A DNA stretch of 63,291 nucleotides, counting the filler, from Bigelowiella natans CCMP2755 (Eukaryota; Protista; Cercozoa): assembly GCA_000320545.1 (NCBI GenBank). It is 5 parts of 5 records of this genome, joined end to end, with 100 filler letters (N's around TTAATTAATTAA, not from the genome) between each part and the next. Parts side by side here need not be neighbours in the genome. Positions count along the whole stretch, not along the records: positions 1 to 7,866 come from ADNK01002983.1; positions 7,967 to 21,316 come from ADNK01002728.1; positions 21,417 to 48,721 come from ADNK01002740.1; positions 48,822 to 62,126 come from ADNK01003267.1; 1 more part is not named here. One strand, written 5' to 3'. A model generated the notes under the pieces. The model did not search any database and was not told where the DNA came from. It saw only the letters and a list, made by a program, of their open reading frames with translations. Both the position numbers and the translations under genes were made by a program. Positions 900-57,460 of the stretch are shown one piece after another (position 1 is the first letter of the stretch; each line of letters opens with the position of its first letter).

Positions 900-2100
900 G
901 ATTGAGCAGTTCGATTCATAATGCCATGCTGTGGCATGGTGCTTGCATGCGTTCGACAACTGTGGATCAAATATCAACACTGTGCGTTGGGATTGAAAGC
1001 GACACTGACACAGATGACAGTTTCTTGGTCCGATGTGGCTCATCAAATCCCTCATTGAACAATCACACATGTGCACATGACATGAATGCGCCTTTTGAGT
1101 TTTTGCGATTGCATCCATGCTCAAGGCGCTGCGCGAACTTTGCCCATTTCTGCATGTGACGATTAATTTGCGGTGGCGACTTGCTAGCTTGAGATGCTAG
1201 ACTTGCGCGCATGCGAGCACGACAAAGCGAGAGAGCAGGAGCTTGGCATCTTTGTCCATGCGACATGAACATCGTGTGCCGCATTGCCACTTGAATGCAG
1301 ACCAACAGCGCGTTTGTTGCGTACAGATGCTATCGTTGGCAACTGTCTGTGCACCATCTTGCAAAGTGTGATGTTTGTTGTCGATCACCGCCATGCAGCG
1401 TCACCGCAAGTTGCGAAAAGCGCTTCCTTCATCATCATTCACACATGCATGTGGCGTGCGTGCCATTGTGCACCATTCGCGCACGCGCATGCACCAGCTG
1501 CATGACAATGATGACACACAACATCGGAGTGTCATTGGTCAGGACAACGATTCATGCGGGTCACATGCGCAAATAAATCGATTTGCAACTCGAGAAAGAC
1601 ATCGTTGCTCAAAATGCATGCAAATGTCATTGAAAAAACAGGACTGCTGAACTGTGCATGCCACGTCACTGATAGTTGTGGTCTGCATGTGTGCATTGGC
1701 AATGCATAAACATCCGCACGTCCCACATGACATGCAGTGATGGACACCATGATGAAATGCACGCTGTGTGCATGCACGTGTCACGTTGCTTTGTCCATCG
1801 CACGCGTGCATGATGCATGCAATGCACACGTGACATGTGCTTTTTCCACGTGGTGCCTAGTTGCAAGGCACGTGTGCATGCATCGTAGGACATCGACAAT
1901 GTGCAAATGACAATGAAAGGTGCTGTTTTTTTGTTCTTCAATGTCTTCACCCTGGCGCCTCTGTGATGACTAGATGACAATTTTTCAAAGAGGGCAAGCC
2001 GAAGCGAAAGAATGGCATGCGAGACTGTGCGGAGCAAAATGATTGTGGCAAAAGAGTTGCAGACAAAAACGATTTCAGTGAAGCCTACATCAACCAAGCG
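900..2100. other. TpA-depleted island with CTAG footprints
   Basis: Few TA dinucleotides and abundant catg/tgca. Footprints cttg-CTAG-cttg 1180-1191 and atga-CTAG-atga 1966-1977. Boundaries approximate. Confidence 0.8.
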
Positions 2101-3052
2101 CACTGCCTGAAGAAAAAGATGAAAAAGAAAGAGAAGCAGAGGAAGGAAAATAATCCAGGCTGCATCGTAGACACTCCCCGGATTTTGAGCAATCATCCCG
2201 ACGATCTTGCCCACCAACCGCAAACAGCTTGCCATCACCAATAGCCACCCCTAAACTCCTCCTCTCAGTCCGCATTTCAGACAGTTCCTTCCAACCTTCC
2301 TCCATGTTCTCCAAATCCAGATGCTCCCCAGATTTTGAGCAATCATGCCGCAGATCATACCCACCAACCACAAATAGCTTGCCATCACCAATAGCCATCC
2401 CCAAACTCCTCCTCTCAGTCCGCATCTCAGGCAGTTCCTTCCAACCCTCCTCCATGTTCTCTAAATCCAGATACTCCCCAGATTTTAAGCAACCATCCTG
2501 ACGATTATACCCACCAACCGCAAACAGCTTGCTATCACCAATAGCCACCCCCAAATACGTCCTCTTAGTCCGCATGTCAGGCAGTTCCTTCCAACCCGCC
2601 TCCATGTTCTCCAAATCCAGATACTCCCCAGATTTTTTGGAAAAATGCCGACTGTCATACCCACCAAGCGCAAACAGCTTGTTATCACCAATAGCCACCC
2701 CCAACCCCCCCCTCCCAGTCCACAAGTCAGGCAGTTCCTTCCAACCCGCCTTCATGTTCTCCAAATCCAGATACTCCCCAGATTTTGAGCAATCATCCCG
2801 ACGATCATACCCACCAACCGCAAACAGCTTGCCATCACCAATGGCCACCCCTAACCCCCCCCTCTCAGTCCGCATTTCAGGCAGTTCCTTCCAACCCGCC
2901 TCCATGTTCTCCAAATTCAGATACTCCCCAGATTTTTTGGAATGATGCCAACGATCACACCCACCAACCGCAAACAGCTTGCCATCACCGATAGCCACCC
3001 CCAAATACGTCCTTTTAGTCCGCATGTCAGGCAGTTTCTTCCACTCCGACAT
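2090..3052 (-). CDS. Kelch-repeat (beta-propeller) protein, six ~50-aa repeats
   Basis: Repeats W-K-E-L-P-x-M-R-T-x-R...G-V-A-I-G-D-G-K-L-F-A-V-G-G-Y-D...S-G-E-Y-L-D-L carry the kelch GG, Y and W signature. DNA period is 150 bp. Confidence 0.9.
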   Translation of the reverse strand: MSEWKKLPDMRTKRTYLGVAIGDGKLFAVGGCDRWHHSKKSGEYLNLENMEAGWKELPEMRTERGGLGVAIGDGKLFAVGGYDRRDDCSKSGEYLDLENMKAGWKELPDLWTGRGGLGVAIGDNKLFALGGYDSRHFSKKSGEYLDLENMEAGWKELPDMRTKRTYLGVAIGDSKLFAVGGYNRQDGCLKSGEYLDLENMEEGWKELPEMRTERRSLGMAIGDGKLFVVGGYDLRHDCSKSGEHLDLENMEEGWKELSEMRTERRSLGVAIGDGKLFAVGGQDRRDDCSKSGECLRCSLDYFPSSASLSFSSFSSGSALG

Positions 3053-4141
3053 TTAGTCTCCGTTCTGCCTCTGCTCCAGCACATCAATTGTTGTATATCC
3101 ATTGATTTTTCCACTATGAGGTCGTCCCAGTCTCTGAACGATGTAGGCACTCGCGAGTATCTCAGCTTTGTGAATTCCATTTTTCAACCTGCCCAGAAAT
3201 CGCTTCTTTTTCATTTCATCTGCGATCAGTTTGTATTTTTCTTTGTCGCTGGTGTGTGCATCATCATCATATTTCTTCCTCAGTTGTGCGATATCTCTTT
3301 CGGTTGAGTCATGCAAAGTTTGAAGTGAATTTGATAACTGAATCTCAGCTTGGGCGATGGCAGTCAGCTTTGTTTCATGACCATGCTTTCGCAACGTGCG
3401 AACGCTCTCTCCTGTGAAAGATGTCCCATCAATTGTTGCGCTTTTGTTTCCGAATTGGGACATAAACGAGATTTTCCCATCGTTGAATTTGTATCTTAGC
3501 ACAAATTTTATATCTGTCTGCTTGAAGGCATATTGCTCTGTTGTTAGTGTGTAAGCGATTTTGCAATTCTTTTTGCCGTTCAAAATGTTCTGAGCATTTC
3601 TCATCCTGCCACAAATGCTCCGCCCTTCCAACACGTCGGTGATTTCCGTGATTTTCTTGCGATGTTTGTCCAAAACGTCTCGCTGGAGCATGATTTCACG
3701 GATCAAATCTCGCTCTTCGCATTCACTGTCCAGTCCTTCACCACCCCCTTCATCCCGGTCTCCACCGACAATTGCATCTTCCAATGTCTTCAATCTAGCT
3801 TCACATACGGATGCATCTTCCTTTCGCTTCTTCAACTCTAGTTCTAAATTTCCTCTCCAGTGTTTCACATAATTCCTCAATTGCTTCAACTTTGTCCTTA
3901 GGTTCTTAAATTCGTTGCTGGTTTGATTGCCAGAAACGATGAAAGTCGCAGCTTGTCCGCAGTTTGTCGGTTCTTTGACGTCACTGTTGCTCGTTGCTAC
4001 TAGTACCGACGCCTTCTTTCGCCTCTTCCTTTGTCTGCCATCTTGAACACTGACTGTCCAGTCCTTTGTTCCCAAGAACTGTGACACAAAAATAGTCCTT
4101 CCTGCAGGAGCTGCTTCTTTGCATGATTGCATTTGTTGCAT
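3053..4141 (-). CDS. N-terminal charged/coiled-coil region, in frame with the kelch ORF but separated by one TAA (possible pseudogene)
   Basis: 362-aa ORF whose stop (3053-3055) directly precedes the ATG of the kelch ORF in the same frame. Confidence 0.6.
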   Translation of the reverse strand: MQQMQSCKEAAPAGRTIFVSQFLGTKDWTVSVQDGRQRKRRKKASVLVATSNSDVKEPTNCGQAATFIVSGNQTSNEFKNLRTKLKQLRNYVKHWRGNLELELKKRKEDASVCEARLKTLEDAIVGGDRDEGGGEGLDSECEERDLIREIMLQRDVLDKHRKKITEITDVLEGRSICGRMRNAQNILNGKKNCKIAYTLTTEQYAFKQTDIKFVLRYKFNDGKISFMSQFGNKSATIDGTSFTGESVRTLRKHGHETKLTAIAQAEIQLSNSLQTLHDSTERDIAQLRKKYDDDAHTSDKEKYKLIADEMKKKRFLGRLKNGIHKAEILASAYIVQRLGRPHSGKINGYTTIDVLEQRQNGD

Positions 4142-4148
4142 GTAGCGT

Positions 4149-4477
4149 GGCCGGTCGAATGAGTTTTTGCTTTATGGTTTCATTTGAACGTTCGATAGCG
4201 TGCGTCAAGTGAGCTCTTATGTCCGAAGAGAAGATGACCGACCATGGATGACGAAAATCCAAAACGACTTAACAATTCAAAATAAGATCCGCCAACTTTC
4301 TTGTCGTAGAACAAAAAAGGCGATATCACCAAGCACCGGCAGGCGGGCCGGTCGAATGAGTTTTCAAGTGAGCTCTTTCTTATGTCCGAAGAGGAGATGA
4401 CCGACCATGGATGACGAAAATCCAAAACGACTTGACAAGATCTGCCAACTTTCTTGTCGTAGAACAAAAAAGGCGAT
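4149..4477. repeat. Local imperfect direct duplication (~130-180 bp units)
   Basis: ggccggtcgaatgagtttt...tatgtccgaagag.agatgaccgaccatggatgacgaaaatccaaaacgactt...gccaactttcttgtcgtagaacaaaaaaggcgata occurs at ~4149-4326 and ~4346-4477. Confidence 0.85.
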
Positions 4478-5276
4478 AACACTAAAGGAACATTGCGATT
4501 TTATAGCTGCGACAAGGAGGAATCCAGACGTGTTGCCCGAGGTTCCATACGAGTATCTCCTGCTCATGGGGGATGCGCTGAGGACTCCTTCTCCACTGAC
4601 TGCCCAACAGAGAGATGGCCACAACATGCTCCTCCGCCTTTTCTCCGTCCTTCCTGTCAATCTCGCGAGCTGGCCAGCGCTGCAAAACTTTGAAGCCCGC
4701 AAAAGCGGCGCTGCTTCTCGCTGGCGGCCATTATAGGCAGGAGGGGGCGGGGAGGGGGCGGGGGGGCCACTCCGATTATGGATGCTCGAAATTCACCAAA
4801 ATCTGCTCCCTACCCAGGAAGACGTCCGTGTCATGCTGCTGTTCTCTCCGATCTGAGTCTTCAGGTACGATTTCTGTTAGCTAGAAGAGGGGGGGAGGAG
4901 TATGAGCAGCAGTAGCAATGTTGTCAGCTGTAAGCAGCACTCACACCATTCTTCTTCGTATCCTCTCACTCCACAATGATAAGACCATATGTTCTTGTTT
5001 CTGTCGCATATGCAATGCTGTGGGGATTTAGCTCATTGAATCATAAGGAGCATACCGGACTTTACCCGCGTACCTCCCCCCCCCCCAACCCCCCCGAACA
5101 CACGATGCTAATACTAAGACTATCAACTACTTGTTAGGGCTGACTCTTGTGGCTGCGACCAACGTGTTCTTATTCGAGCCTTCGTTCAATTTCGCAGTGG
5201 AGCAACAAGCCATAAACAGGGTACTCCTAGTATGAGAAGTATCTTGGGGCTGGCTTTTGCTGAACTGTTTGTGTAT

Positions 5277-5315
<39 letters not shown>

Positions 5316-6599
5316 AAGATTCATCGGATTGGCCAAACGAAGCCTTGTACGGTGAGACAGCGACAACGTGTACAGCACGCCAACCGACAATAGCAGCAAC
5401 AATGCAGTAGTAGTACCTCATTCGTTTCGGTTTTTTATTTACATTCCCTTTCCCACCCCGCCATCATTTGTGAGATGATGACTTGCATATACAGTAACAC
5501 GAACATAGTCTCTGTTCCCATTGTCTAGTGCTTAGTAATGACGTAGAACTCTTATTCCCTCCCCCCCCCCCCCCTTTGGCCGGCCCCTCGCAATGCTACT
5601 GATGCTGATGCTGATGGTGTTGTGCTGAGCTTATAGTTTCTGCCTGTCCGGATGGAATACCACTCAGGTGTACCGCTTTGTAACGACGAACACAATCGAG
5701 GAAAAGATTGTCCAGGTAGTCAACTTGCCAGCTGCCCTGCGGCGATTCCATAGTCGTATAGACAGGGTTGGGTGCTTGATATGGCAGTCATGTTCGGTGT
5801 GATTTCTTTATGAGGTGTTATGAAGATATATTTCCTACGCTTTGTTTGGCCCCTCCCCCCCTTGTACTCCTCCTCTCCCCCTCCCTCACTATCTACCAAA
5901 ACTATGACGATACGATAGATAACTACCGAGGGCATGCAACAGCAAAAGGCTAGCAGTAGGAGTAAGAAGAGAAAGAGGACTTCTGGTAACGGGGAGGGGG
6001 GAGACGATGATAATAATGGTAATACCGAGGCACATACGAATCACTAGCAGTGACGTGTATGGAATAGTGGTAGTTTCATTGACTGTTGTTTCCATTCCTT
6101 CCCCGCTCCTCCTCCAGTGCGATTGTGAATATTATAGCAATGAGATCCACCACTACTAAAGACGAGTGGTGTTCTAGCCATTTGGTCATCCACCACAATC
6201 TGTGATTTCATCGCTAGCAACGTCGATGTCGTACACCGAACACACATCCTGCTACTCATAGGTTTGGGGCTTGGAAAGGGAGCGAGAGGAGAGGACGACC
6301 AAAACGGCGATGGGGTTGCAATTCAGAAGGCAAAGGAGGAGATCAAGGCAAAACCGCCCTTTGTTCATCATGACCATCACATGCACCCGAGCGCCCAACC
6401 TCGTTGTTGCTGATGCATGCAATGTGCAAACATGCTCATACTCGTCATCCGTGTGATTGTGAGGAGGATGCTTGACGCGAAATGTGATGACAGGTGAACC
6501 AGCTCCTGTATCTTCTGGGCATCGTTAAGAACGCAGATGAATTATGTGATGGAACTGCAAGACAAATCTAACGAGCCCCGTGACGTAGATTTATAGATT

Positions 6600-7650
6600 G
6601 CCCATTGGAGATGTTGATTGAGCAGTTCGATTCATAATGCCATGTTAGCTAGCATGGTGCTTGCATGTGTTCGACAACTGTGGATCAAATGTCAACACTG
6701 TGCGTTGGGATTGAAAGCGACACTGACACAGATGATGGTTTGTTGGTCCGATGTGGCTCATCAAATCCCTCATTGAACAATCACACATGTGCATGGCATG
6801 AATGCACCTTGCAAGTTTTCGCGATTGCATCTATGCTCAAAGCGCTGCGCGAACTTTGCCCATTTCGGCATGTGATTGATTTGCGGTGGCGACTTGAGAT
6901 GTTGTGAGCTTGCACGCATGCGAGCATGACAAAGCGGGAGAGCGGGCTAGCGGGAGCTTGGCATCTTTGTCCATGCGACATGAACATCGCATGCCGCATT
7001 GCCACCTGAGTGCAGATCACGACCAACTACAGGGCGTTGTTGCGTACAGATGCTATCGTTGGCAACTGTCTGTGCACCATCTTGCAAAGTGTTCCATCAT
7101 TGTTGTCGATCGTCGCCGCCGTCGTCTCCGCATGCAAGTTGCGGAAAGCGCTTCCTTCGTCATCATTCGTGTATGCATGTGGCGTGCGTGCCATTCGCGC
7201 ACGCGCACTGTTGCACCTGACAATGATGACACACAACGTTGGCGTGTCATTGGTCAGGACAACAATTCAAACGGGTCACATGCGCAAATGAATCGATTTG
7301 CAACGTTCATCGAGAAAGACAACATTGGTCCAATTGCATGGAAATTTCATCGAAAAAACAGGACTGCTAAACTGTGGCACGTCACTAACAGGTACAGTCC
7401 GCCTGGCAATGATGCACAGACATCCGCACATCCCACATGACATGCATTGATGGACATGCGATGATGGAGACCGTGATGCAATGCGAAACTGTGCGGAGCA
7501 AAATGATTGTAGCAAAAGAGTTTCAGACAAAAACGATCTCAGTGAAGCCTCCATCAACTGAGCGCACTGCCCAAAGAAGAAGCCGAAAAATGATGAGAAG
7601 CAGAGGAAGGAAAATGATCCATGCAACGCAGACACTCCCCAGATTTTGAG
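6600..7650. other. TpA-depleted island (paralogue of 900-2100)
   Basis: Same composition bias. Footprint cggg-CTAG-cggg 6943-6954 is absent from copy 1. Confidence 0.75.
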
Positions 7651-7866
7651 CAATCATTCCAACGATCTTGGCCACCAACCGCAAATAGCTTGCCATCACC
7701 AATGGCCACCCCAAAACTCCTCCTCTCAGTTCGCATGTCAGGCAGTTCCTTCCAACCCGCCTCCATGTTCTCCAAATCCAGATACTCCCCAGATTTTAAG
7801 CAACCATGTGGACGATTATACCCACCAACCGCAAACAGCTTGCCATCACCAATAGCCACCCCAAAA
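7554..7866 (-). CDS. 3' end of the second kelch-repeat gene copy (truncated by gap)
   Basis: AIGDGKLFAVGGYNRPHGCLKSGEYLDLENMEAGWKELPDMRTERR... Confidence 0.8.
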
Positions 7867-7966
7867 NNNNNNNNNNNNNNNNNNNNNNNNNNNNNNNNNN
7901 NNNNNNNNNNTTAATTAATTAANNNNNNNNNNNNNNNNNNNNNNNNNNNNNNNNNNNNNNNNNNNN
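7867..7966. other. Artificial contig-joining spacer (N44-TTAATTAATTAA-N44)
   Basis: The identical 100-nt spacer with stops in all six frames recurs four times. Confidence 0.95.
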
Positions 7967-8139
7967 TCCCCCCTCCCTCCCTCCTCCCTCCTCCTGCTGC
8001 TGCTGTATCTACTACTACTACTACTACTCCTATCTAATTCAAACTCCTCCAACGACCTGCTTAAACCAGTCACCTGCAACCTCGTGTTAAATCCCGCCAC
8101 CTTCCGCCCCCTCCCCCCCTCCCCCCCCCCTGCCTACAG

Positions 8140-8629: not shown

Positions 8630-8679
<50 letters not shown>

Positions 8680-8766: not shown

Positions 8767-8797
<31 letters not shown>

Positions 8798-9829: not shown

Positions 9830-10700
9830 GATGACATGATGCATGCCACAGTTGAATGCCTTATTTTGACGCGGACTTCGACTTCAGAGCGTCTAACAAT
9901 GAAATATCGACCTTCATGCTTGTGATAAGTCCAATTGTACTCATTCACAGCATGCGTGTTGCTCTCTCCACCAAGACGTGTGCCATGCATTTGCGCGCTG
10001 CTGCTGGAGTTCCTGATGTCGATTGTGTGTTCATGCAGCATGCAAATGCGTGTGTGCAATCTAGATGTGTGCACATGTGTGCCGCTAGCTTCGCTTGCAA
10101 AAAATGATTTTCATGCCAGTCCCAGCACACATGGCCAGCACTGCGATGCACTGCAGAGCTGGAGTGCACCACAGCGTGCGTGCGCGCACAAAACGCGAAC
10201 AGCACAACTCAACAAGCGCAGCACCAAGCTAGACAGCGTGCGTGCATGTGTGTGCACGTGCCCTCCCATGGCACTCATTGCAGTGCTGAAGTGCACTGCT
10301 AGACTGATCGCGATCGTTCTGCACATGCACGTTTTGACACACAATGAAAACACACACACACGTGCACAAACATCACTGCACTCCTGCATGTTCTTGATTT
10401 CGCTCCCCAGAGCGAAGAAGCGGAATTGGACAATTCTCAACTGCGACTGTGTCTGCGTTCCCGAACATCTTGGACATTTTTGCTGCCGCAAACGTGATTC
10501 ACGAGCGAGCAGCCCCTGGCCAGGCCTTTGTCGGCCGATGAATTAATTCCAGGGGAGGAAAAAAAAAAGGCGGCCACAGAGCGTGAGATTGATGATGGAT
10601 TTGATGGCTGATGTGCCAACATCAGAAACGACGTTCACAGTGCGAAGGGCCAAATAACAATGGAAATCTCCCGCCCTTTTTGATGGTTTTGATGCAATTT
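9830..10700. other. TpA-depleted island
   Basis: TG/CA-rich with rare TA. Footprint actg-CTAG-actg 10295-10306. Confidence 0.8.
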
Positions 10701-24619: not shown

Positions 24620-26000
24620 GTAGTTGTCGCATTGAGAAAATCGCATGCCTTTCAAACACGAGATGACACTGAGCCGTTGTCACCACTTCTCTTCGTGGTG
24701 TTGGACTACCTAAGAAACTAGAAAACCGCGTGAAGACATGTTGTCGCATACACCAAAACGTCTGAGATTTCTTCGCATTTCTGTGGTTCTGACGCGTGTG
24801 ATTTTTGATCAATGCTTCTTCTCATGTTTCATGTTTCATGTTTCTGTGTGCGTTCGTTCGCTCTGATGATGAGGGCGCACAGATTTTCGCAGCTAGCTGG
24901 AACGCGATGCATGCTTGTGCCAGCGTGGTGATCAACTCTGCTAGTCTGGATCGCAAGCGCGAATTGGACGTGCGTCGCAACCTGGCAATCGATCATCATC
25001 ATGGATCGAAGTGCGGACTCGAGCCGTGAAAACGTGAACCCGCCAACCGTTCCAGCGTTTTGCACGTGCAGCGTGCGTCCTGGCGTTCTCCAGTTCTCTG
25101 CGCGCGCACACAATTTTCATTTTTCACACACACGTTTTTCGTGTGGGATGGCATGCAGACATGCCACCCTGACATTCATGCACATCGTGCACACGTCTAG
25201 ACGTGACATCACGTGACATGAGATCGACATCATTGCCATGCACAGACGCATGAGCATGACTTGCACAGCTAGACAGATGCAAGTGCGAAGTCAAACGAAG
25301 TCTGGAATTGGTTGAGTTGAGTCTCACTTGTGCGAAAATGACTCGTGCCATTTGCACGTGCGAAAATGACTCGTGCCATTTGCACCAGTGCGACAATCAC
25401 ACTGGGTTAGTCCAGTGGTGGGAGCTGTCAGCGAGAGAGTTGGCCAGCTGGGGGGATTTCCGTCAAACTGCTGCAACCAGAACCCAAGTCTTCATCGACG
25501 TTCTTCCCGCTTGCGAGTTGGAGAGATGCAAACGATTTCGTTTCCAAAGAGAAAACAGAGAGGATCGTGATGACGACGATGATGATGCTGACAGATGACA
25601 ACGGGATCTGCAATGATGTGATCAAGTTTGCCTTTTCTCGTCTCTAGCAATTTCTTGATTGTCACAATTGAATACTCTCTCACAGCACAGCAAATGCAGT
25701 CATTCATCATCTCGATTGTCTCCTTATTGTTGGTCTGTGATGCAAGACCGTCATCAATGCCAACTTCACCAAACTCATTCTCAATGATTGCAAATCAACA
25801 CACACACACACGTTGCAAAGTGCACGTGTCATGGTGTTGACAAACCCGCAAACCCTAGTTGCACTCATCAACGAAACCTCTGCTTGGACTGCCACATGCT
25901 AGCATGCAATGCACAACACTTGATGAGCTAGCGCGTGACGCTGAGTGCATGCAGCTATTTATCAAATTGCCGCCTAATGACACATGCTGCATGTGCATGC
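24620..26000. other. TpA-depleted island with footprints
   Basis: 24781-25920 has only three TA outside CTAG by eye. Footprints at 24937, 25193, 25265 and 25895. A short tandem duplication (gtgcgaaaatgactcgtgccatttgcac) lies at ~25330-25385. Confidence 0.85.
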
Positions 26001-36003: not shown

Positions 36004-36954
36004 CACAGCTAGACAGCTCCGTCAAACCCGGTGACAATTGGGTTGTGAACAGTGCAGCGCTTTGAAGCAGCAGGCAGTTGCAGTTGGTCAAGGAAAAGTC
36101 ATCAGAGCTAGCTTGTCCGATGGCCAAACCTAGCAAACCTCAAAAAATGACCGAAATGTTGACCAAAATGTCCATTTTCAAGGCTCACACAGTTCCGTCA
36201 AACCTGCAACGAATCGCCAGAACATGCATTTGGAAGCTTTTGCGCGCGACCAAGCGCGTTCTAGCGTTGTGTGATGTGATGGACATTGGATTTGCTCGCA
36301 TTTCTTTGAAATTTTTCGTGCACATCACACTTGGTCAAACACACGCTAGCACGCGCAAAAGCACTCAAAATGTGGCAGAGAACAAACGCGCAGCGTGCAT
36401 CCTTTGCACAATGGGTGTGATTTTTAAGACTTCAGCACTTTTCGCGCTCACTGAGGCCTTGAAAATGGACATTTGGGTCAATTTTTCGGTCATTTTTTGA
36501 GGTTTGGCCATCGGACAAGCTAGCAAGTTCTGATGACTTTTCTCTGACCAACCGGGACTGCCTGCTGCTTCAAAGCGCGTCGCAAAGCACTGCACCACTG
36601 TTCACAACCCCGTCAATGCCGGGTTTGACGGAGCTGTGTCAGTGAGCGCGCAAAGCTAGAAAGTGTGAAAATTCACACCCGTTGTGCAGAGGATGCACGC
36701 TGCGCGTTTGTTCTCTGCCACATGCATTTTGAATGCTTTGCAATGGACACAGCAATGCAACGTGTTGTGGATTGCATGTCCATCATCTTTTGCGCGTGTG
36801 TTTGACCAATCTTTGTGTGCACGAAAAATTTCAAAGGAATGCGAGCAAATCCAATGTCCATTGCATCACATGACGCGCTTGCTAGCTTGGTCGCGCGCAA
36901 AAGCTTCATCCAAATGCACATTCTGAAAATTGTCACAGGTTTGACGGAGCTGTG
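36004..36954 (+). mobile_element. MITE-like non-autonomous DNA element (outer copy)
   Basis: Terminal inverted repeats CACAG(+8-bp footprint)CTCCGTCAAACC ... GGTTTGACGGAGCTGTG. Interrupted by an inverted copy of itself. Confidence 0.75.
36188..36638 (-). mobile_element. MITE-like element (inner copy, 451 bp), inverted, 3-bp target duplication TCA
   Basis: TIRs CACAGTTCCGTCAAACC / GGTTTGACGGAGCTGTG, flanked by tca at 36185-36187 and 36639-36641. Its reverse complement matches the joined halves of the outer copy. Confidence 0.8.
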
Positions 36955-37236
36955 AGCCATGCGATAGCCAACACACAATTGCATCAAACAACACAGTGGC
37001 CATGGCTTGCTGTGACAAAAGCTCATTCATCTTGTCATCGTAGCTACGACGATGCTGCACCTGCTAGCCTGCTACATGCTAGCATGCACCACAGAGATGT
37101 AGATCGCCTAATAGTATTTCTAAATTATGGTCAGTACGTATGACTAAGTCTAGATTCACATGCAAATAAAAAAGCTACAAAGCTCTACGATATACACGCA
37201 TCTAAACATCTATATACAACGTTGGTATCTATCCAA

Positions 37237-40200
37237 CTAGCCAACAAAGGATTGGTCAGAGGAATTCGAACCGTTGCCTTTTTCCTCGAGCGTTTTCAGC
37301 TCCCCACCTTCGCTCCCTTTTGCCAGTAGCGCAAGAGACGAATGGCGGGTTCCACGCGTCCTCACACGCCCTTTCTCTTTCACTAAAGCATGGGGAGTTC
37401 GTGGCCAGCGTGAAGAGCTCATCGCTGATTCTCCACCGGTTTGGTGCGTACGCCTCGTTGGATTTACAGAGGTACTAGTACTTCCAGGATGTGGAAGGTT
37501 AAGCGTAGTAACCCTCCCTTCGCTGTAATCCCGCGCTGAGGCCAATTCACTATCCTCTCCGAGCCCTAGACTATTCTCGCTGACGTAGGCTGCAGAGTCC
37601 AGCAGCATATCTCTCCGACCATTCTTATTTCCCATGTCTCCGGTTGAGGAAGAAGCTGCTGGGAAGGAAGAACCGAGCGCTGGAAGTCGAGGAACGGAGT
37701 AATTTAGCTCCGCCACCGAGCGTGGGTTGGTGTTTACCACACGCGCAAAGTGGCCTCGGGAGGCAGCCGATCCTCCTGCTCTACCGCCGTTTCCACCCCG
37801 AAGGCTGTTCATCTTGGTCACCTGGTCGAGAATGAACTCTTTCACGTTTTCGTTGTCGTTGAAAGCGATTTCAAACGAGTTGTGCAGCGCGTGCGCCATC
37901 TTCAGCGCCTTCTCGCAGTCCTTTCCGTTATAAACCACTGTATTATGGACTCGGACAGCGCGCCATCCGACCTTTATTCCGAGTTTCTTACCAGCTGGGA
38001 ATACGTGCTTCACCCTCCCGCCTATATCCAGCTCGCAAGTCTCCTCGTCCGAAGGCACAACCATAACGATTCTTTCATCACGCCCCAGGCCAGCATGTTC
38101 TACCTTGCTGTTGGAGGACCCCGCGCATACACACGCGCAACACGGCATAATCAGAAGGAACTCGATCATCGAGATAGTTCCCATCCGGAAGAAGAAGTCT
38201 TGGAAGAAACTATACAGACTGGCGGTCACAGCCATCGTTCCAGTGTTTTTGGTGCTCCACGACAAAACTACGAGGAGAAAGCAGCAACCGAGGCCTGCCA
38301 TCACCGCAACCATCATCGTCAGAACGTCGCACAACGACCAGTTGTAGACTCTCATTTTTAGAATGGATTCCTGCCGGACGTACAACCCGAACACTGTATC
38401 CTCACGGTCTGGGTCCTTCAGACTGGGCGCGAAAAGGTTGATCGTCCGGCCCGATCGCGTCCTCCGCACCCCCCCGACAGTCGCATGGGAGCGGAGAAGC
38501 GTTCTCTTCTGGCCAGGGGCTGATGAAGAGCCAGTGGCTTTGGTGTCTCCCTCGAAGCGATGGGGTGCAATCTTGCTGTCCGCAAGAGATGGATGCGATG
38601 CTCGTGAAGAATTCGACTCTGAAGACTCGGAGGGAATACGCGAGTGTTTACTTCCAGCGCCACCACCCCCTTTTCCTCGGTCTCTTGCCGCCCACGCACT
38701 TCCACCGCTACGGCTACTACCGCGTCCCGTTTTGTCTTCTTTGGACGCTCCCATCTTCTCGGCCTTTGCATCGCCCGCACGTTGCCCGAACACACCCCCG
38801 AGAGTCGCTGCGAACATCCTTGAATTCCCACGTTGGAGCGCTCGTCCTAGCTGTGCGAATCTACTTTTTGGCTCTCCATTCTCATCCTCATCGTCGTAGT
38901 TATCGTAGTCATCATCATCATCATCGTCGTCGTCGTCGTCAGCGTTGTGAGCCTCATCACCCTCACCCCCTCCCGCATCGTCATCGTTTAACTGCACCTC
39001 CAAGCCCTCGGGAGCGTCAGTAGAGCCGCCTATCAGACCCAAGAAGAATAGCAAACACGGCATATAGCTCGCCCACACAGGCTGCTTGAACTTGACGGCG
39101 AAGTGCGAAGGTGGTCTGCGGCTTAGAATCATCCCAATTGTGAAAGGGATGGGGAACGAAATGACAAACGCAACAATGGCGACTGCTGCCGGTCCCTGAA
39201 CGAACAAAAGGTGCTGCTCCGTTTCGAGGAGCAAGGCACACACAACAGACGCATTGAGAAGGAGAGTGAAGAGGACGACGAGTCTCTTCTGGGAATTCAC
39301 GAAGTCCCCTGGATGGCGATAAATGAGCGAAATCCACGGATGCTTGCGGCGAAAACTCCACTTCGTTGTCTTCAAGCAAGACCCGTAGCCGCGCTCGTCT
39401 CTAGCATAGATTGCTCGAACCTTCGGTTTGTTTGCAAGAATTAGGCGGGCAATTTTGATGAGGAACACCGATAATAGTGATCTCTACATTGGTCTTTTTT
39501 ATAGGTGGCTACTATCGGTGAGGTAGTTGACGTGGCAGCCATTTTGGCAGCACACGGTGGCGACAAAGGCATGCATGCGCGTGAGGCTTATCGTTCTCCA
39601 TGCGCTGTTTTCAACGAATATTGCAATGAATAATTTTGGTTGGTAGTACCTGATTGTACTGGCGCCAGAAATCGCTCTCCACTCGTTTGTTTGTAATTTG
39701 CTTATCAAAATACCACGCCATGGGGTAGCAAACCAGGAAAATCCCTCCCATGACGAGCACGAACGCCATCATCAAGTTTTTGAATCTAACAAAAAGAGAG
39801 GATTTGGGTACAAGTTAAACGACTGGCTAATACCCGAAACAGAAAATGTCATCGCCTTCTCAAGAAATATCAATGCAACTGGTGTTTCGTTTGTGCAAAA
39901 TTTCACATCAAATCTGAAGGATTCCACATCACTGCCCTCCTTCTTTCTTCTTTTTTGCATGTAGTAAGCACTTACGGGTTGAATGCATCGAAGGTGATAT
40001 CCTCCTCCTCGACGGTCTGAATCTGCACTTTGAATCGCATGCGCGACGAAAACGGCGTAAGGTGGCTACTCGCGCACTCGTAGCTTGCTGGTTGCGTGGC
40101 TGTTGCGTTGACCGCGGACGCAATAACCGTGGCGACGCCGTAAGTAGACCATCCCTCCTCCGCCTCATTCCAAAACACGCACTCGGGGACCCAACTTCCG

Positions 40201-48721: not shown

Positions 48722-48821
48722 NNNNNNNNNNNNNNNNNNNNNNNNNNNNNNNNNNNNNNNNNNNNTTAATTAATTAANNNNNNNNNNNNNNNNNNNNNNN
48801 NNNNNNNNNNNNNNNNNNNNN
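48722..48821. other. Artificial contig-joining spacer
   Basis: N-run with central TTAATTAATTAA. Confidence 0.95.
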
Positions 48822-48849
48822 CAAGGGCCAACCGAATCCGAAGGAATTT

Positions 48850-49675: not shown

Positions 49676-49720
49676 AGACGACAATAGCAACGACGAATAG
49701 TAGTCCAAGCAAGGACGTAC

Positions 49721-49756
<36 letters not shown>

Positions 49757-49799
49757 AGTCTGAAAAGTAATGAGTCTAGAAGTGCGGCTATAGTGCTGC

Positions 49800-50660
49800 A
49801 CAGCCATTGCAGCATGGCAGTGTGCGGTACGACACCCGTTACGATCGTTTGCAGAGCGCATAGATCGTTTGCATGATGACAGCCCGCTACGCAGCCATCA
49901 TGTGCGAATATGCCATGCACATATCGCATTTAAGGCATTGCTATTAGATTACCTCTTTGTGACGACTACATTTATCATTGTGATACGTTTGCAACGAACC
50001 GAGTGACCCGTCTAGCCGTACGTGCGCGGCGTATGCAATCATGGAGACGGCCAAAGTAGGGGCGACGCTAGCAAATGTAAGACGGATGCATAATGAATCA
50101 ATCAAATTTGTTCAATGGTCATCCTCATGCTACGTAGTTGTCTAGCTGTGCAATGCCAGCGGCTACGTACAGCGCTAATTTTGAATCTGTTGGCTTCCGC
50201 TGCTGATGTGTTTCATGCGCAAATGTGTAATGCCTAGCAGCAAGTGCAGGTGCTTGTGCATGTACGTAACACAACCAGACACGCGCATGCAACTGCAACC
50301 ATAGCAATGAGCATTAGCGTAGCACGTACTAGCGCATGATAATAGACACAGTAATAGACACATATGACCATTGTGTAAACATCTAATTATTTCATTACAT
50401 CCGTCGTCTCATGCATGCTAGCATGTGTACACAGCTAGATAGAGGTCTGCATCATCGTCCTGATGACATGGATGCTTTTACTAGTTTAATTGCATGAAGC
50501 ACACGGTGGCTAACACAAACCGACACAACATGTATGAGCGCTGTAGCCGCTGCTCTGTGTAGCTACACTACATTAGCTAGCTATAGGATGACCATTGAAA
50601 ATATTTAATTATTTCATTACATCCGTCTCATATATACACGCTGCATGTGCATCATGACAC
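49800..50660. other. Partially TpA-depleted island with footprints
   Basis: ccgt-CTAG-ccgt 50008-50019, catg-CTAG-catg 50414-50425, ttta-CTAG-ttta 50477-50488, plus single-mismatch cases. Many TA still present. Confidence 0.6.
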
Positions 50661-50773
50661 TTGCAAATTCGAGCTAAGACCTTCTGCGCATCTCATATAT
50701 ATTAGGTTCCCGCATGCTCATATCGTAGCAAGGAGAAAAGAGCGTGTTCACCCAGCAAAACATTCACGCATCA

Positions 50774-52350
50774 TCAGAGGCCGAATATCGCACACATTTC
50801 GGACACTTCCATTGCTGTCAATGATTTTATTGGGGGCGGCTCAGCTTCTTCGTTGATGCTATCGTCTCTCTCGGCGGTTGTCATGGCCGGGCTACTATTC
50901 TCTCCAGGCAAACTCGAGAGAGATTGCACGGGTAAGAGTTCCTTCGCCTCTATACTAGTCGCATCAGAGTCTTTCCTTCGTGTTTCAGGACAACCCTTTT
51001 GGCAACCACTAGGTGCTGGCCTCACGGTGGTGGGGGTATCTATTCCATGGTTTTGGCTACTTCCGCTACTACTGCTGTTGCTGCTGCTGCATGAAGCCGA
51101 CGCACAGTAAACCGAACGTTTCTCGACACTGGTTCGTACAGTTTTCTGGGATTTCTTGCTCACCCTACTGCCACCCTTTTCGCACAGCGAGGAGCGTCTG
51201 CTGAACATGTCACCTGGAAGAGAGGCATTCTGACCATCAGGCGTCCTTCTCCCGGTGGCGATTGTATCCGCCCTCACGGTCCTCGTCGCCGGCGCCGACT
51301 GCAGTTGCCTTTTCCGAGGGGCAGGAGATGCCACATCGGCAGGGCGACGTACTGCCCTCCGTGCTTTCTTTTGACGAAGCTCGGTGTCGCTACTGTCGCT
51401 ACGAGCGTCTCCGTTTTGGAAGTCTAGAGTGCACTGAGAGAGAGAGAGGGAGAGAGAAAGAATAAAACAACATGTGAGAACGATAGATTAATCACACAAG
51501 AACACACACACACACACGCACACACAAGGATCGCTGAGTCAAAAGCAAATATGAACGCCTAGACAACCGCACCACACGCTATATCATCGCGCCATGCAAT
51601 GCAATCAGCGGCCATCTATCTTCGTCTACCAACCTTCTCCCCTAGGATTGATTGCAATGGAAGTCAAGTGTGCAAGGACTCCAGAGCAAAGCAAGCTGTC
51701 GATCAAAGCCGGGAGTGCTATGGCTTGATGACTCGAGTCAAGCCAGAAGTGCAAGGGGCTTAACTTCGATTTGGCTTACCACCCCTATACCCCTCTCTTT
51801 CGACACGGTTTCATGTCCTTTCCGTGGATAAATTCAGAGAAATCTTTGTTATTTACGTAGGAAGGATGTCATGTGTTGCGGGGAGGGAGGACGGTTTTAC
51901 TTCTTCAAATTCGCTATATTTTTCTAGATTTGGGTGGGGGGTGCTACGTCATAGACATCTTACCTCTGGGTCTGGGCACATGATCACCTTCTCCTCGATG
52001 TTAATCCAGAACGAGCGCAGCTGCATCCCACAGCTGCACATGCCCTTACTCGCTGGTCTCTTCCGTTTTCCTATCTTTCTTGTCGCTGTTCTACTTGTTG
52101 CTTTGTTGAGTTCGGGATCGGGAGCGAAAAATGGCTGGTGTCTCGTGGCAGACGTTGTTGAGCCTTCATAGCTAGGCGTGTGGCGCTCTCTTGTGAAGAT
52201 CTCCCCCTCCAGTCTTGTTCGTTTCTTGAAGGAATAGCTATGGGATCTACTCTCCCCGCTCATCTGACTTTGGAGCGTGATCGAGTCCATCCGCGCCTTT
52301 GTTTTTCCGGAGGCGCAGGCCCCTAGAGGAATATTCGTGGGGCCGTGCAT
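50774..52350 (-). CDS. Uncharacterised low-complexity protein with a Cys cluster (possible zinc site)
   Basis: First exon ends ...GMCSCGMQLRSFWINIEEKVIMCPDPE. A later exon reads CTLDFQNGDARSD...PAPRKRQL to the stop at 50774. Confidence 0.5.
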
Positions 52351-52757
52351 CGAATCAATGTGGGATGAGCAGTGCGGAAATGGAGTTTTAAGATTGTTAT
52401 GAAAGCTAATAATTTAACATAAATACAATAATATCATATAATAATTAAAAACGACATATATCATCTCAATTTATTATCTATAAAAGGAGCTCCTCAGAGC
52501 CTAGGAGTTCCCTTTCTCCCGCTGGCTGGCGAGTCCGAGGAGGCGGAGATAGCGTGGAGACCTGGAGATTCTTGGTGTCTTCGCAAAAAAAAAAACATGT
52601 CGCCATTGCAAATCGTATGATCTCATGCAAAATAATTTTTACGAGCGCATTAAAGCGGTATTCCAGTAAAAACGTCCTCTATTTTAGTTGTCCCGGGTGG
52701 GGATTACAAATTCTTAGCCATACTTCACAACGCCGCAGAGTGCGCAAATCCATCAAA

Positions 52758-53953
52758 ATGGCGGACGAATCGAAGGACCAAGATCGGGCAGAGGAGAAAC
52801 CGGAGGTGGCCCAAATCCCGATTCAGATGCATGACCCAGACAGTGTTATGATTTCAAGGATCCACATCCCATTTTCATTAGACCAAGGACCAAGCTAAAG
52901 AGGACGATCGAAGCCCGGAACGCGGTATCATAAGTACATTGAGATCACAATCAGCAGAAGATTAAATCCATTTTCTTCATAAACTGATACTTTCATAAAT
53001 GGAAAGTTCGGACTAAAAAAAAAAATTTTATTCATGATTCCTTATTTGTTCGATGTAAAGAGCCCGGGGGCTGACTTATGTTCATACTAGATTTTATTTC
53101 ATTCTGTCCTATTCCTTCCTGTTTAATTAAGCTTGCATAAGATTGCATCTGTTTTGCTTGCTTTACCACCTACTGTTCACACATGACACACATGTTGTTT
53201 CCCGCATTTTCCATTCCAAAAGCAGAGTGGTATTTCGCTTTAATCCACGTGCCCGACGTTTACATAATCGCATTATATTAAGCAGGGGATAAGGATGATC
53301 GTGGAAACGATAGCGATAAAGACGACGACCGTGATCGCAGCCGCGGCCGTAGCAGGGACCGCAGCCGCGACCGCGATGATAGAAAGTCCAGGCGAAGAGA
53401 CGATGATGATGATGATGACCGCCGTCGTGACCGATCTCGTGACCGCCGTCGTGATCGATCCCGTGATCGATCCCGCGACCGACGCCGTGATCGATCCCGC
53501 GAGCGCAATAGGTCACGCGATCGTTCCGGGGAACGCGGCCGCGGTGGTGGTGGCGGCGGCGGCGGCGGAGGTCGGCGCGATACAGGAGATGCTGAGGGAG
53601 AGGGAAGGAAGTGCTTCCTCGGAAACCTCAGTTTTAACACCGATGAGGATTACATCCGTAGGAAGTTCAGCAAGTTCGGCGACATTGCCGACGTTTTCCT
53701 CCCCAGGGACTACTACAGCGGAAAGAAAAAAGGATACGGATTCGTCACCTTTGAGCACCCACGTGACGCTGAGGACTGCATCTCCGAGATGGACGGCTAC
53801 GACTTCGACGGTCGTAGAATCACTGTGGATCTAGCTAAACCTCGTCCTTCGAATGATCGTGGTGGCGGGCGCCGTGATGACCGCGACCGCGACCGTCGCC
53901 GAGATGATCGTTATGGCGACCGTGACCGCGACCGTAGGAGAGATCGCTACTAA
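52758..53953 (+). CDS. SR/RD-rich RRM protein (SR-like or Tra2-like splicing factor), probably three exons
   Basis: DRSR repeats, then RRM KCFLGNLSFNTDEDYIRRKFSKFGDIADVFLPRDYYSGKKKGYGFVTFEHPRDAEDCISEMDGYDFDGRRITVDLAKPR (RNP2/RNP1). Stop TAA 53951-53953. This frame is not in the ORF track because the last exon lacks an upstream start. Confidence 0.9.
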
Positions 53954-54149
53954 GTAGTAGCGTCGATCGTTCTGACTGGATACACGAGGGGGGTTGGAGC
54001 TTTTCACACAAAGTGGGCATGGAAAAGGGAGGAAGAAAGAATAAAATACGGAAGGGCGCACTGTGATTATGAACAGGAATCCAAGAACATAACGTGCAAC
54101 ACATCTACGCCCTCTTATATGTATTTTACCTCTTGAAATCTTCACGGTG

Positions 54150-55070
54150 ATACCCAAACATCAAACATGTGTGTCCTTGTCTGTGTGTGTCTACGTCTTT
54201 GCACATGCGTTCCATGTCTTGCTTGGGGCATAATTTATATTTGCAGCATGCAAGTGAAAGCAAGCAACCATGTCCATCAATCATTGAATGCGCCGTAGGG
54301 CAATGTGGCTGTAGCTGACAAGGCCAGCCGCACTGAGTACAGATGTGCAGAATCGAATGCGGTTGTTGTAGGGGGAGTTGCACATGATGATTGTGCCATG
54401 CGCATGATGAGCCCTGCGCAGCCGTGCACGTTCCCCACATCCGCCACCACAAGCTGTCATGCATGTGTTGTCGTCGCCAACTCAGTGTAGTGACATGTCG
54501 ATCAGCACAAGCTAGCAAGGCAAGAATTCGTTCAATGCGGCGGCACGACAACTTGCACTTGTCATGTGGTTCAGGATGTGCATGTGGAGGAAGAATTCTG
54601 TCTTCGTTTCACCTCGTCACGATTGCAAAACACAAAATTTCACTCTAGTCCCAGCTAGCCAGACCAAGTCCAGCAGTTAGAATGTGCAAGAAACAAGAAA
54701 CATTGCAGATGGAGTCATGTTGAAACACTCCCCTTGTGACCTGATGGAAGATGGTGTTCTTGCTTGCGTTGTCGAGTGCGATCATTGGAAACAATGAAAC
54801 AATGAAACAATGATGAAAAACTACATTTCCAAAGTGTTGCAAGACACTTGCAGTGTGCAAAATGCAGTGCCTCGAACTGGTTGGAATGGTGGTTTTTTTC
54901 TTCCCAAGCAACACTGTCAGCTGCCAAGAGAATTGCCCACATGCGGGTGGAGTCCAATTAGGAGCCCGGGTTTGGTTTTGTGCGGGGTTCTTTCTGTCTA
55001 GATGCCCTCTTTTTGGAATGCAAGAACTTCCAAAATGTGATCTGCATTCTTCGGAATGTGTTCCCCTGAT
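54150..55070. other. TpA-depleted island with footprints
   Basis: caag-CTAG-caag 54508-54519, ccag-CTAG-ccag 54651-54662. Confidence 0.75.
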
Positions 55071-55199
55071 CCAGATATTTTCCGATGATATTTTGGTTTA
55101 TTTCACTTCAATCAATGAGGATGTGTGACTCTTTCTCAAGTTACGAAACCCAGTAACCGCCAGGAGGAATATATGACGACCCTCCCCTGCCAGCATAAC

Positions 55200-56693
55200 A
55201 TGCCGGCGCTCACTTTCGTTCTCGCGGCGATGTGTGTGTCGGTATGCGCTGCTGCTGCAAGCCCACGAGTCTTGCCGGGAGTTGACCTGAGCGAGAACGC
55301 TGGGCCGCAATCCATCATGCTCGTGGTGAAGGGCGAGATGGGCCTCGACGAGATGGCGCCTTTGGACGATACTCTGCCACGCTCGCTCAAGCGAGAAGCC
55401 GTCTACAGCTTCCTTACGGACAGGGCGGAACGTGGGCAGAAGTGTGCACGCGCGGCCCTGCGCAAACGGAACGTCGAGTTCCAAGCGTTCTGGATAACCA
55501 ACGCGATCTCGGTACGAGAGGTGGCAGGCCCAGTGCTCCGAGACATCATCACAGAGTGCGGGTACGAAATCGAGGAGGTCAGACAAATGGGTTACCTCAA
55601 GCGCCGGATACCACCTCAAGATTCCATGCGGCCGCAGCCTGTTTCCTCAAAGCTCCAGTGGAACATCGAGAAGGTCGGGGCGGACAAGGCGTGGGCTGAT
55701 GGCCACGATGGGACTGGCGTCGTTGTGGCCACTCTAGATGGAGGCGTTCGGTACACCCACGATGCGCTTATCAACAACTACCGAGGGACGGTGGATGCTG
55801 ACAAGGGCAAGTTTGAACACGACTACAACTGGAAAGACTGGCCGTACAAGAACAAGGAGCCTCTCGACTCGGATGGCCACGGCACGAACGTGCAGGGGAT
55901 TCTGTCCGGGTCAAAGGAATCGGGGGTGGGGGTGGCGCCCGGCGCTAAGTGGATCTCAGGCAAGATCTTCAACTATGCAGGATACTCCTCCAACGAGTGG
56001 ACGCTGTCAGGCGTCCAGTGGGCCATGTGCCCCACTCCGCTGGCATCTCGGTATGAGCAGTCGGGGAACTGCTCTCTGGGTGCCGACGTCGTTTCTTGCA
56101 GCTGGGGAGAAGACGACGCCACCACCGGGTTTCTCAAAGACGCCATGGCAGCTTGGCTCAAGGCGGGTATGGTACCTGTCTTCGCGGTGGGAAACGCAGG
56201 CCCGCATTGCGGTACAGTCGTCAGCCCTGCAGATTATGCCGGTGTGCTCTCTGTGGGGGCCACCGATAAGCATGACGAAATGGTTGAATTCTCCTCTCGG
56301 GGGCCTGGTGCGAACGGCACTAAAGGCGCCCTTCCATACGACCCTTTAACACCCAATCTTGTTGCCCCCGGACTGATGATCCAAGGGCCATCTCATAAAA
56401 GCGACGACGGATACACTGGTTTTTCTGGCACGAGTCAGGCCGCACCACACGTAGCGGGAGCAGCAGCGTTGCTGCTCTCCGCTCATCCATCATGGAGCCC
56501 GCATCAGGTCGCGGAGGCCTTGTACGCTACAGCTGCCACTGCATCTCTTCCGGTTCCAGATTCGGGGTGGGATAAATGCGGAATGCCTGATGCTGCACTT
56601 GCGCCAAACGCCTCTGCTACGTTTCCCAACTTCATCGCAGGTTATGGCCGCCTTGATGCTGCTTCGGCGGCAGCATATTCCAAGGCTCATTAG
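55200..56693 (+). CDS. Secreted subtilisin-like serine peptidase (S8, bacillopeptidase F-like), intronless
   Basis: Signal-like MPALTFVLAAMCVSVCAAAASP. Catalytic Asp (VATLDGG), His (DGHGT), oxyanion Asn (AVGNAG) and Ser (SGTSQAAPHVAG). Confidence 0.92.
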   Translation: MPALTFVLAAMCVSVCAAAASPRVLPGVDLSENAGPQSIMLVVKGEMGLDEMAPLDDTLPRSLKREAVYSFLTDRAERGQKCARAALRKRNVEFQAFWITNAISVREVAGPVLRDIITECGYEIEEVRQMGYLKRRIPPQDSMRPQPVSSKLQWNIEKVGADKAWADGHDGTGVVVATLDGGVRYTHDALINNYRGTVDADKGKFEHDYNWKDWPYKNKEPLDSDGHGTNVQGILSGSKESGVGVAPGAKWISGKIFNYAGYSSNEWTLSGVQWAMCPTPLASRYEQSGNCSLGADVVSCSWGEDDATTGFLKDAMAAWLKAGMVPVFAVGNAGPHCGTVVSPADYAGVLSVGATDKHDEMVEFSSRGPGANGTKGALPYDPLTPNLVAPGLMIQGPSHKSDDGYTGFSGTSQAAPHVAGAAALLLSAHPSWSPHQVAEALYATAATASLPVPDSGWDKCGMPDAALAPNASATFPNFIAGYGRLDAASAAAYSKAH

Positions 56694-56696
56694 GGT

Positions 56697-57460
56697 CCTG
56701 CTAGCCTGGCAGGACAGAGCTGTACGCTGTGATGGAAAAGGAAATGGATGTTGCAAGCGCGTTCGTTCCACTTGTCAACTCAGTGAAACATGGTGTAGCA
56801 TGACCAGACGATCCAGAGTGCTGTGTGTGAATCTTCATGTTTTTAACATAACGCATCACACATTTTTTAACTTGATATTGCATGATTATACAACGTGTGT
56901 GGGCGTGCAGCGTTATCTCATCATCGTACGCATGCACATGTGTGTTAGTCAATCGAACATGTCTAGATTCACGTTGCAGCGCGCAAGGGATGCATTATTT
57001 TAGGCTGTGCATACGAAATGCAGATCTAGTCAGACATTCTAGACATCAATATTGCACCATATCTGCTGTAGCCATCGCGCACCACTGCGTCAGCCAATCG
57101 CCCAAGATCGAAACGCATGCGATGCACAGCCATGTTGCAAACCAATGCAATCAAGCTTAATTGGCGTGCGCGTCAACACAACAACTTCCACGATGAATGA
57201 TGGATCGGATGGGCAACGCAGCAGAGTTTTGCATCTCATCAAGCATAGCAAGCTACACAGAGACCAGCAGAATTCTCACCCAGCGTGCAACCATCGCCAA
57301 ACACTGTCTCAAGTTGCCCAGCATTGCCACGTCTAGACGTCTGACATAGACGTCTTGGATCGGATGAAATACATTGTGTGTACGTGGGTGCTACGCTGCA
57401 CATTGGCAGCTCCACAATGATTATCACACTGTCAAAACGATGCGAGGCCAATGCAATCTA
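56697..57460. other. TpA-depleted island between convergent 3' ends
   Basis: cctg-CTAG-cctg 56697-56708 begins 4 nt after the peptidase stop. acgt-CTAG-acgt 57329-57340. Confidence 0.65.

Follow-up and report, generated by a model that had tools for sequence, protein, structure and literature searches.

Word-CTAG-word insertions in repeat islands of Bigelowiella natans, probable excision scars of a cut-and-paste transposon

When Tc1/mariner elements excise, the transposase cuts the non-transferred strand slightly inward of each end, by a few bases (PMC6943129, PMC7913693, PMC2642840), and end joining then leaves footprints that consist of the first or last 2 to 4 bases of the element between the target duplications (PMC6943129). 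An empty site of a Stowaway element in Thinopyrum (Triticeae) reads TACT..AGTA (PMC1925063). Here we analyze a stretch of 63,291 nucleotides from Bigelowiella natans CCMP2755 (assembly GCA_000320545.1; five parts joined end to end, hereafter the window), in which the tetranucleotide CTAG repeatedly stands between two copies of a variable 4-bp word, NNNN-CTAG-NNNN. A first-pass annotation had listed 30 such sites and one 5-bp case; all 30 read as listed, and the site at 36125 reads CAAAC-CTAG-CAAAC. Two further sites were found, at 17706, where CTAG occurs three times, and at 37233 (CCAA).

Perfect 4-bp direct repeats flank 32 of the 162 CTAGs in the window, and the matches by flank length are 3 at 3 bp, 32 at 4 bp, and 1 at 5 bp. 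Local dinucleotide shuffles (n=200) gave a mean of 0.8 sites and a maximum of 4, permutation of left versus right flanks among the CTAGs (n=10,000) gave a mean of 1.15 and a maximum of 6, and 2 of 119 CTAGs were so flanked in a comparison set of 30 loci from other sources. The gaps between the joined parts (7867-7966, 21317-21416, 48722-48821, and 62127-62226; each N44, TTAATTAATTAA, N44) create a spurious ATTAA signal in spacer statistics. With simple repeats masked, no spacer was more strongly associated with a 4-bp repeat than CTAG (corrected p about 2e-30); the remaining top combinations of spacer and repeat length were re-readings of the same CTAG sites. The enrichment over other spacers that the first-pass annotation had set as a test thus held within the window under masking and shuffle control. 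Among 21 loci of S8 relatives from other organisms, NNNN-CTAG-NNNN occurred once in total; pattern scans returned no site in metagenomes or prokaryote genomes and either none or chance matches in viruses.

We defined islands without reference to CTAG, by their richness in TGCA and CATG (total, 13,375 bp). The islands hold 29 of the 32 sites, and the remaining three fall within the first half of a miniature inverted-repeat transposable element (MITE), below the island threshold. When cores were scored in the islands with low-complexity words filtered out, NNNN-CTAG-NNNN reached 28, versus 0.1 in local shuffles. Other palindromic cores scored 2 (TGCA; shuffles, 0.8), 1 (CATG; shuffles, 0.6), 0 (AGCT), and 1 (GATC). 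Partial cores stayed at shuffle level (CT/AG, 10 versus 6.2; TA, 3 versus 1.6; CTA/TAG, 0 versus 0.9), and CAG/CTG reached 7 versus 2.3 (shuffle maximum, 6). Plain 4-bp tandem duplications numbered 57, against 40.1 expected (standard deviation, 7.6), a mild rise like that of other lengths. Two 9-bp variants were also present, the one at 36125 and ACAT-TCTAG-ACAT at 57034. Local hopping was rejected, as clustering within islands was not significant either for gaps of ≤100 bp (9 versus 6.1, p 0.12) or for gaps of ≤25 bp (4 versus 1.7, p 0.09).

The 32 sites carry 20 strand-folded words. Base composition was C22 A8 T2 G0 at position 1 and G23 T6 A3 C0 at position 4, and C..G words made up 18 of the 32. 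The doubled word is strand-symmetric, and the flanks outside it are nearly unbiased. All 32 words avoid G in first and C in last place (island background, 58%). The M-N-N-K bias that had been proposed was upheld, with 28 of 32 words following it, versus 25% of the island background. A fixed-length duplication with symmetric bias is the mark of a dimeric DDE strand-transfer enzyme, and a palindromic core is the automatic remnant of any inverted-repeat element. The CTAG is unchanged where the word ends in T or A (9/32) or starts with A or T (10/32), and because it is constant in words ending in T or A, the core was not copied from the flank. This constancy contradicts hairpin-type excision as in hAT, CACTA, and Transib elements, in which palindromic nucleotides would be copied from the flank. 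The commonest words being C-first and G-last, the outer C and G of CTAG do often match the flank complements, and a CACTA-like MITE is present in the window; however, that MITE makes a 3-bp duplication, and the core is the same across words ending in G, T, and A instead of carrying flank-complement bases. We therefore regard a hairpin-type origin as very improbable.

The empty state was seen directly for 9 of the 32 perfect sites (1180, 6943, 17766, 36005, 36257, 36342, 36516, 36652, and 36878) and for the 9-bp site 36125, which bears out the first reading of the sites as true insertions. In the duplicated segment 1-1754/5709-7466, scars 1180 and 6943 are each empty in the opposite copy, and alignment of the MITE copies showed 36005, 36125, 36257, 36342, and 36878 each to be empty in the other copy. 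We also aligned 240 contigs of run X9 to the window. High-depth contigs omitted exactly 8 letters at 36342, 36516, 36652, and 36877 (among the 12 of 41 insertion/deletion differences listed), and site 36108 was also empty in such contigs. The depth of the MITE family in this run reached about 3000, versus 8-10 for single-copy contigs, and scar 36005 was present without differences in a contig of single-copy depth. Run X9 may be the source of the window DNA, which leaves the paralogue comparison unaffected. Since 9 of 32 sites have an empty sister and the family majority lacks the 8 bases, the scars are derived insertions relative to the MITE-family majority. One-mismatch versions numbered 7 among the 38 other island CTAGs, about 5 above a rough chance figure, an excess that would mean about 2% decay since insertion.

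Contigs of DNA run X14, which is not flagged as a source of the window, carried all 7 of the 7 sites in 49800-57850 without differences. In marine metatranscriptome run X17, one contig bridges 56697 (depth 2.6, two other letters different, no gaps), and this single low-depth contig suggests that the scar exists outside culture. These contigs bear on an origin by artefact or chance, through library linker ligation, assembly error, or slippage in CATG/TGCA-rich DNA. The position of the scars in composition-biased islands and the possible derivation of the window from run X9 would fit such an origin. It is refuted by the island shuffles and the scores of the four other palindromic cores, as well as by run X14 and the marine RNA contig carrying scars and by decayed and deleted versions, and we give it almost no credence.

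The sites were probably left behind when a cut-and-paste DDE transposon excised, an element that duplicates 4 bp of its target and ends in either CT..AG or CTAG..CTAG. At insertion, a dimeric transposase would cut the target with a stagger of 4 bases, with a preference for C/A-N-N-G/T and against words that start with G or end with C, and gap filling would then double the word. During excision, cleavage of the non-transferred strands would fall a few bases inward of the element ends, as in Tc1/mariner, so that the terminal bases of the element would remain on the chromosome as 3' overhangs, which end joining would seal into word-CTAG-word. With CTAG..CTAG ends, self-complementary 4-base overhangs would anneal without processing; with CT..AG ends, 2+2 bases would be retained. 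As there are no half scars, we lean toward CTAG..CTAG ends. A DDE family not yet described, whose CTAG ends seal themselves, would be part of the best explanation, a part that we propose tentatively, as somewhat short of an even chance. A fifth element base biasing the repair was rejected, since the 9-bp variants at 36125 and 57034 imply different fifth bases. Scars with flanking deletions would mostly escape our search pattern.

Insertion polarity, fixed length, symmetric target bias, a core independent of its flanks, and confinement to islands of repeats and pseudogenes are direct observations. As the parent element was not found, the mechanism is an inference, from the element and its ends to the offsets of cleavage and the route of repair. 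The excision origin offered by the first-pass annotation was accordingly sustained as to derived insertions, fixed 4-bp duplication, symmetric bias, and palindromic core, and is left without a parent element or transposase in the window. Several results count against it. In the 63-kb window, we found no element that is bounded by a 4-bp duplication and has terminal inverted repeats and CT..AG or CTAG..CTAG ends. Pfam searches of 157 open reading frames (ORFs; 10 long and 147 further ones, ≥90 amino acids, a set that excludes intron-split exons of <90 amino acids) detected no transposase domain, and no parent element was found among the loose ends listed (24 of 348 and 6 of 59). At no locus were empty, scar, and element alleles found to segregate, and the raw RNA reads of run X24 spanned little of the window and yielded nothing on alleles. 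A ratio of 32 scars to 0 elements would call for very rapid turnover; the very frequent cycling proposed in the first-pass annotation is likewise deduced from counts. Footprints elsewhere are usually mixed, whereas the CTAG scars are uniform: 8 of 94 rice footprints were clean (PMC4423477) and P element junctions varied (PMC2895639). Finally, in the literature searched, which left out most subscription journals, supplements, and Repbase, we found no eukaryotic family described as combining CT(AG) ends with a 4-bp duplication of variable sequence.

The only CT..AG pair with a 4-bp duplication and inverted repeats, at 36112-36519, was rejected as a candidate element, being a nested MITE copy. 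Pairs of CTAG..CTAG within 6 kb had end matches of at most 11/20, and the 324 CTAG-anchored ends shared no common family motif beyond known duplicates. An inverted-repeat element with CTAG..CTAG ends could also have made the 4-bp duplication and then been lost without its transposase, if its long terminal repeats folded into a hairpin and replication slippage or microhomology repair deleted the DNA between the CTAG copies. Because the two CTAGs are repeats in direct as well as inverted orientation, one copy would stay, which explains the uniform core and the absence of half scars. However, such deletion usually leaves varied internal remnants, and none was recognized among the 324 ends; a high rate would be required, and the parent is unseen there too. 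We consider this route unlikely.

The abundance of scars, the absence of elements, and the uniformity of the core could all be accounted for with no mobile element, by a nuclease cut with a 4-base 5' stagger, fill-in, addition of CT or CTAG by sequence-specific tailing or from a linker, and joining. A 4-base 5' staggered cut is topoisomerase II-like; we know of no enzyme that performs this kind of break and CTAG addition, and the count of plain 4-bp tandem duplications rises no more than mildly above expectation, as given above. A telomerase-like source of the linker would draw on a TCTAGGG repeat, which we could not confirm; it predicts a T before CTAG and varied tails, whereas G precedes CTAG in 23 of the 32 sites and island CTAGG cores number 0 by the filter used. 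Break-and-linker joining thus appears improbable, and there is correspondingly little reason to expect an undescribed mutator that tags repeats and dead genes with a fixed CTAG linker in tens of thousands of copies.

The footprint type is real, well controlled, and apparently undescribed. We found no account of NNNN-CTAG-NNNN in the literature searched, and Repbase-type libraries or supplements could hold an unclassified family with such ends. Four properties of a transposon family can be predicted from the scar, namely its ends, its target duplication, its target bias, and its cleavage offset, and the family matches no testable superfamily. In a eukaryote that has received little study, the scars also provide a record of transposition and end joining that can be counted and roughly dated. 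The MITE pair differs by 7-8 CTAG-type insertions versus 36 substitutions, and the segmental duplicate by 2 versus 74; scars therefore account for a considerable share of the mutations in unconstrained DNA. Extrapolated from a window assumed to be typical to a genome assumed, from run sizes, to be of the order of 100 Mb, the number of scars would be about 50,000. As a tool, too, an enzyme whose clean 4-base ends seal themselves would be of interest.

Coordinates of CTAG scars, variants, and the host MITE in the window
Feature	Position	Strand	Observation
Scar CTTG-CTAG-CTTG	1180..1191		Empty in duplicate copy near 6893
Scar ATGA-CTAG-ATGA	1966..1977		Pattern match
Scar CGGG-CTAG-CGGG	6943..6954		Empty (CAGG) in duplicate copy near 1236
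Scar ACTG-CTAG-ACTG	10295..10306		Pattern match
Scar CACG-CTAG-CACG	14888..14899		Target overlaps scar 14898
Scar CGAG-CTAG-CGAG	14898..14909		Overlaps scar 14888
Scar CTGG-CTAG-CTGG	14920..14931		Pattern match
Scar CACG-CTAG-CACG	14940..14951		Pattern match
Scar CATG-CTAG-CATG	17633..17644		Pattern match
CTAG-CTAG-CTAG	17706..17717		Scar with CTAG as doubled word, or short tandem repeat
Scar ATCT-CTAG-ATCT	17766..17777		Empty in adjoining direct repeat
Scar CAAT-CTAG-CAAT	18107..18118		Within 7-bp tandem repeat
Scar TCTG-CTAG-TCTG	24937..24948		Pattern match
Scar ACGT-CTAG-ACGT	25193..25204		Pattern match
Scar ACAG-CTAG-ACAG	25265..25276		Pattern match
Scar CATG-CTAG-CATG	25895..25906		Pattern match
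MITE outer copy, CACAG-starting terminal inverted repeats	36004..36954	+	Host repeat, not scar-maker; copy alignment
Scar ACAG-CTAG-ACAG	36005..36016		In left terminal repeat of outer MITE copy; 3 sister terminal repeats without scar
Damaged scar, left CTTG copy mostly deleted	36104..36115		Same MITE site as scar 36516; empty in high-depth contigs
9-bp variant CAAAC-CTAG-CAAAC	36125..36138		Empty in inner MITE copy
Second copy of same MITE, nested inverted in outer copy	36188..36638	-	3-bp TCA duplication flanks
Scar CGTT-CTAG-CGTT	36257..36268		Empty in outer MITE copy
Scar CACG-CTAG-CACG	36342..36353		Empty in outer MITE copy; 8 letters absent at depth 278
Scar CAAG-CTAG-CAAG	36516..36527		8 letters absent at depth 669
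Scar AAAG-CTAG-AAAG	36652..36663		8 letters absent at depth 374
Scar CTTG-CTAG-CTTG	36878..36889		Empty in inner MITE copy; 8 letters absent at depth 381 (36877)
Scar CCTG-CTAG-CCTG	37060..37071		In single-copy-depth contig, 0 differences
Scar CATG-CTAG-CATG	37075..37086		In single-copy-depth contig, 0 differences
Scar CCAA-CTAG-CCAA	37233..37244		CTAG gives TAG stop of minus-strand ORF 37237-39483
Scar CCGT-CTAG-CCGT	50008..50019		Run X14 contig, 0 differences
One-mismatch TTGT-CTAG-CTGT, likely decayed scar	50138..50149		Loose-end consensus of same high-copy repeat reads single word
Scar CATG-CTAG-CATG	50414..50425		Run X14
Scar TTTA-CTAG-TTTA	50477..50488		Run X14
Scar CAAG-CTAG-CAAG	54508..54519		Run X14
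Scar CCAG-CTAG-CCAG	54651..54662		Run X14
Scar CCTG-CTAG-CCTG	56697..56708		Directly after stop of S8 peptidase ORF; runs X14 and X17
9-bp variant ACAT-TCTAG-ACAT	57034..57046		Pattern match
Scar ACGT-CTAG-ACGT	57329..57340		Run X14

The window contains intron-rich genes with kelch, REJ/GPS, RRM, subtilase, and PPR domains (Pfam domains found: kelch, REJ, GPS, RRM, S8, PPR, cobW, and helicase C), and parts of it are present in marine metatranscriptomes. The islands are made up of segments that have been duplicated, MITEs, short repeats in high copy number, and one or more decayed gene copies (cobW). Their 13,375 bp carry 29 scars, a density of about 2 per kb, so that the earlier figure of several per kb applies to the 1.3-kb MITE island, with its 9 scars, and exceeds the overall value. 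The ten long ORFs (13,227 bp) contain 18 CTAGs and one scar, 37233. An exclusively intergenic location, as first stated, breaks down at 37233, where scar and stop codon of a long ORF overlap. One island, moreover, lies on the decayed cobW copy, so that the intergenic DNA includes pseudogene sequence. Scar 37233 (37233-37244) supplies the stop of a 748-codon ORF, and by inspection the empty reading would stop at the same residue; the scar may be an insertion tolerated at the end of a coding sequence. The overlap of scars 14888 and 14898 points to two successive events.

The MITE at 36004-36954, which we take to be CACTA/CMC-like, is a high-copy repeat with a 3-bp TCA duplication, and a related end motif lies near 25460. 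Both nested copies are scarred at the same CTTG site (36108 and 36516), the family majority being without a scar there, and this site may be a hot spot or mark a subfamily. The repeats at 50584-50637 (also at 50080-50166 in reverse and at 57763-57865) and at 54790-54880 have a summed contig depth of >100,000, versus about 99 for single-copy DNA. RNA reads end loosely in poly-T at 50589, within the short repeat, which suggests a minus-strand polyadenylation site inside it. The tandem segmental duplicate 1-2405/5709-7865 is about 98% alike and gapless over its first 870 bp and about 91% alike with 22 gaps over the next 880 bp, an uneven divergence that suggests conversion or two events; it has an intronless kelch ORF abutting a 372-codon ORF without a Pfam match. 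The decayed cobW copy occupies 25495-25794 inside a TGCA/CATG-rich island. The islands show an excess of TpG/CpA and purine-pyrimidine alternation, with no clear CpG loss. Between two scar-bearing islands, positions 15400-17430 form an AT-rich, gene-like stretch (36% GC at 16-17 kb), whose end is RRM-like and whose longer frames have no Pfam match.

Like P elements, the presumed scar-maker would have a palindromic terminal tetramer and 3' overhangs joined by microhomology; P elements differ in their 8-bp duplication, 17-nt overhangs, mixed junctions, and CATG tetramer (PMC2895639). The 7-8 bp duplication and CAT(G) termini of P elements do not fit the scars, in which the duplication is 4 bp and the CATG core scored 1 versus 0.6 in shuffles. 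Helitrons share the tetramer CTAG at their 3' end (PMC10741241), but have TC..CTRR ends between A and T and no target duplication, whereas the scars show a fixed 4-bp duplication and empty sites. The TTAA duplication of piggyBac and Kolobok (PMC9587614) was found in 0 of 32 words. Ginger1 and Ginger2 also make a 4-bp duplication, and the CCGG/CCGT targets of Ginger1 share the C..G/T frame; their TGT termini, in contrast, predict a TGCA core (PMC2836005), which scored 2 versus 0.8 in shuffles. Among the 32 scars, the words CCGG and CCGT occurred 0 and 1 times, respectively; the TGT..ACA termini and CCGG/CCGT or RTATAY targets of these elements do not fit the scars. Sola elements share the 4-bp duplication, and their highly variable termini could include CT(AG) ends; in the source consulted, neither footprints nor CTAG ends were found reported for them (PMC10741241). 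The scar-maker may belong to Sola.

Tc1/mariner and Stowaway elements resemble our sites in keeping both target copies with terminal element bases between them, if the CTAG of the scars derives from element ends. The Sleeping Beauty footprint is TA-CAG/CTG-TA (PMC6943129), as opposed to word-CTAG-word here, and the TA duplication of Tc1/mariner is replaced by a variable 4-mer with C/A..G/T bias. Stowaway footprints vary, whereas the scars have a single fixed core and occur by the dozen in 63 kb with no parent in view. The Stowaway site TACT..AGTA contains the same CTAG core as the scars (PMC1925063). This TA-CT..AG-TA site is a close precedent for the excision-scar reading (PMC1925063), and the geometry of the scars is a variation on a known kind of footprint.

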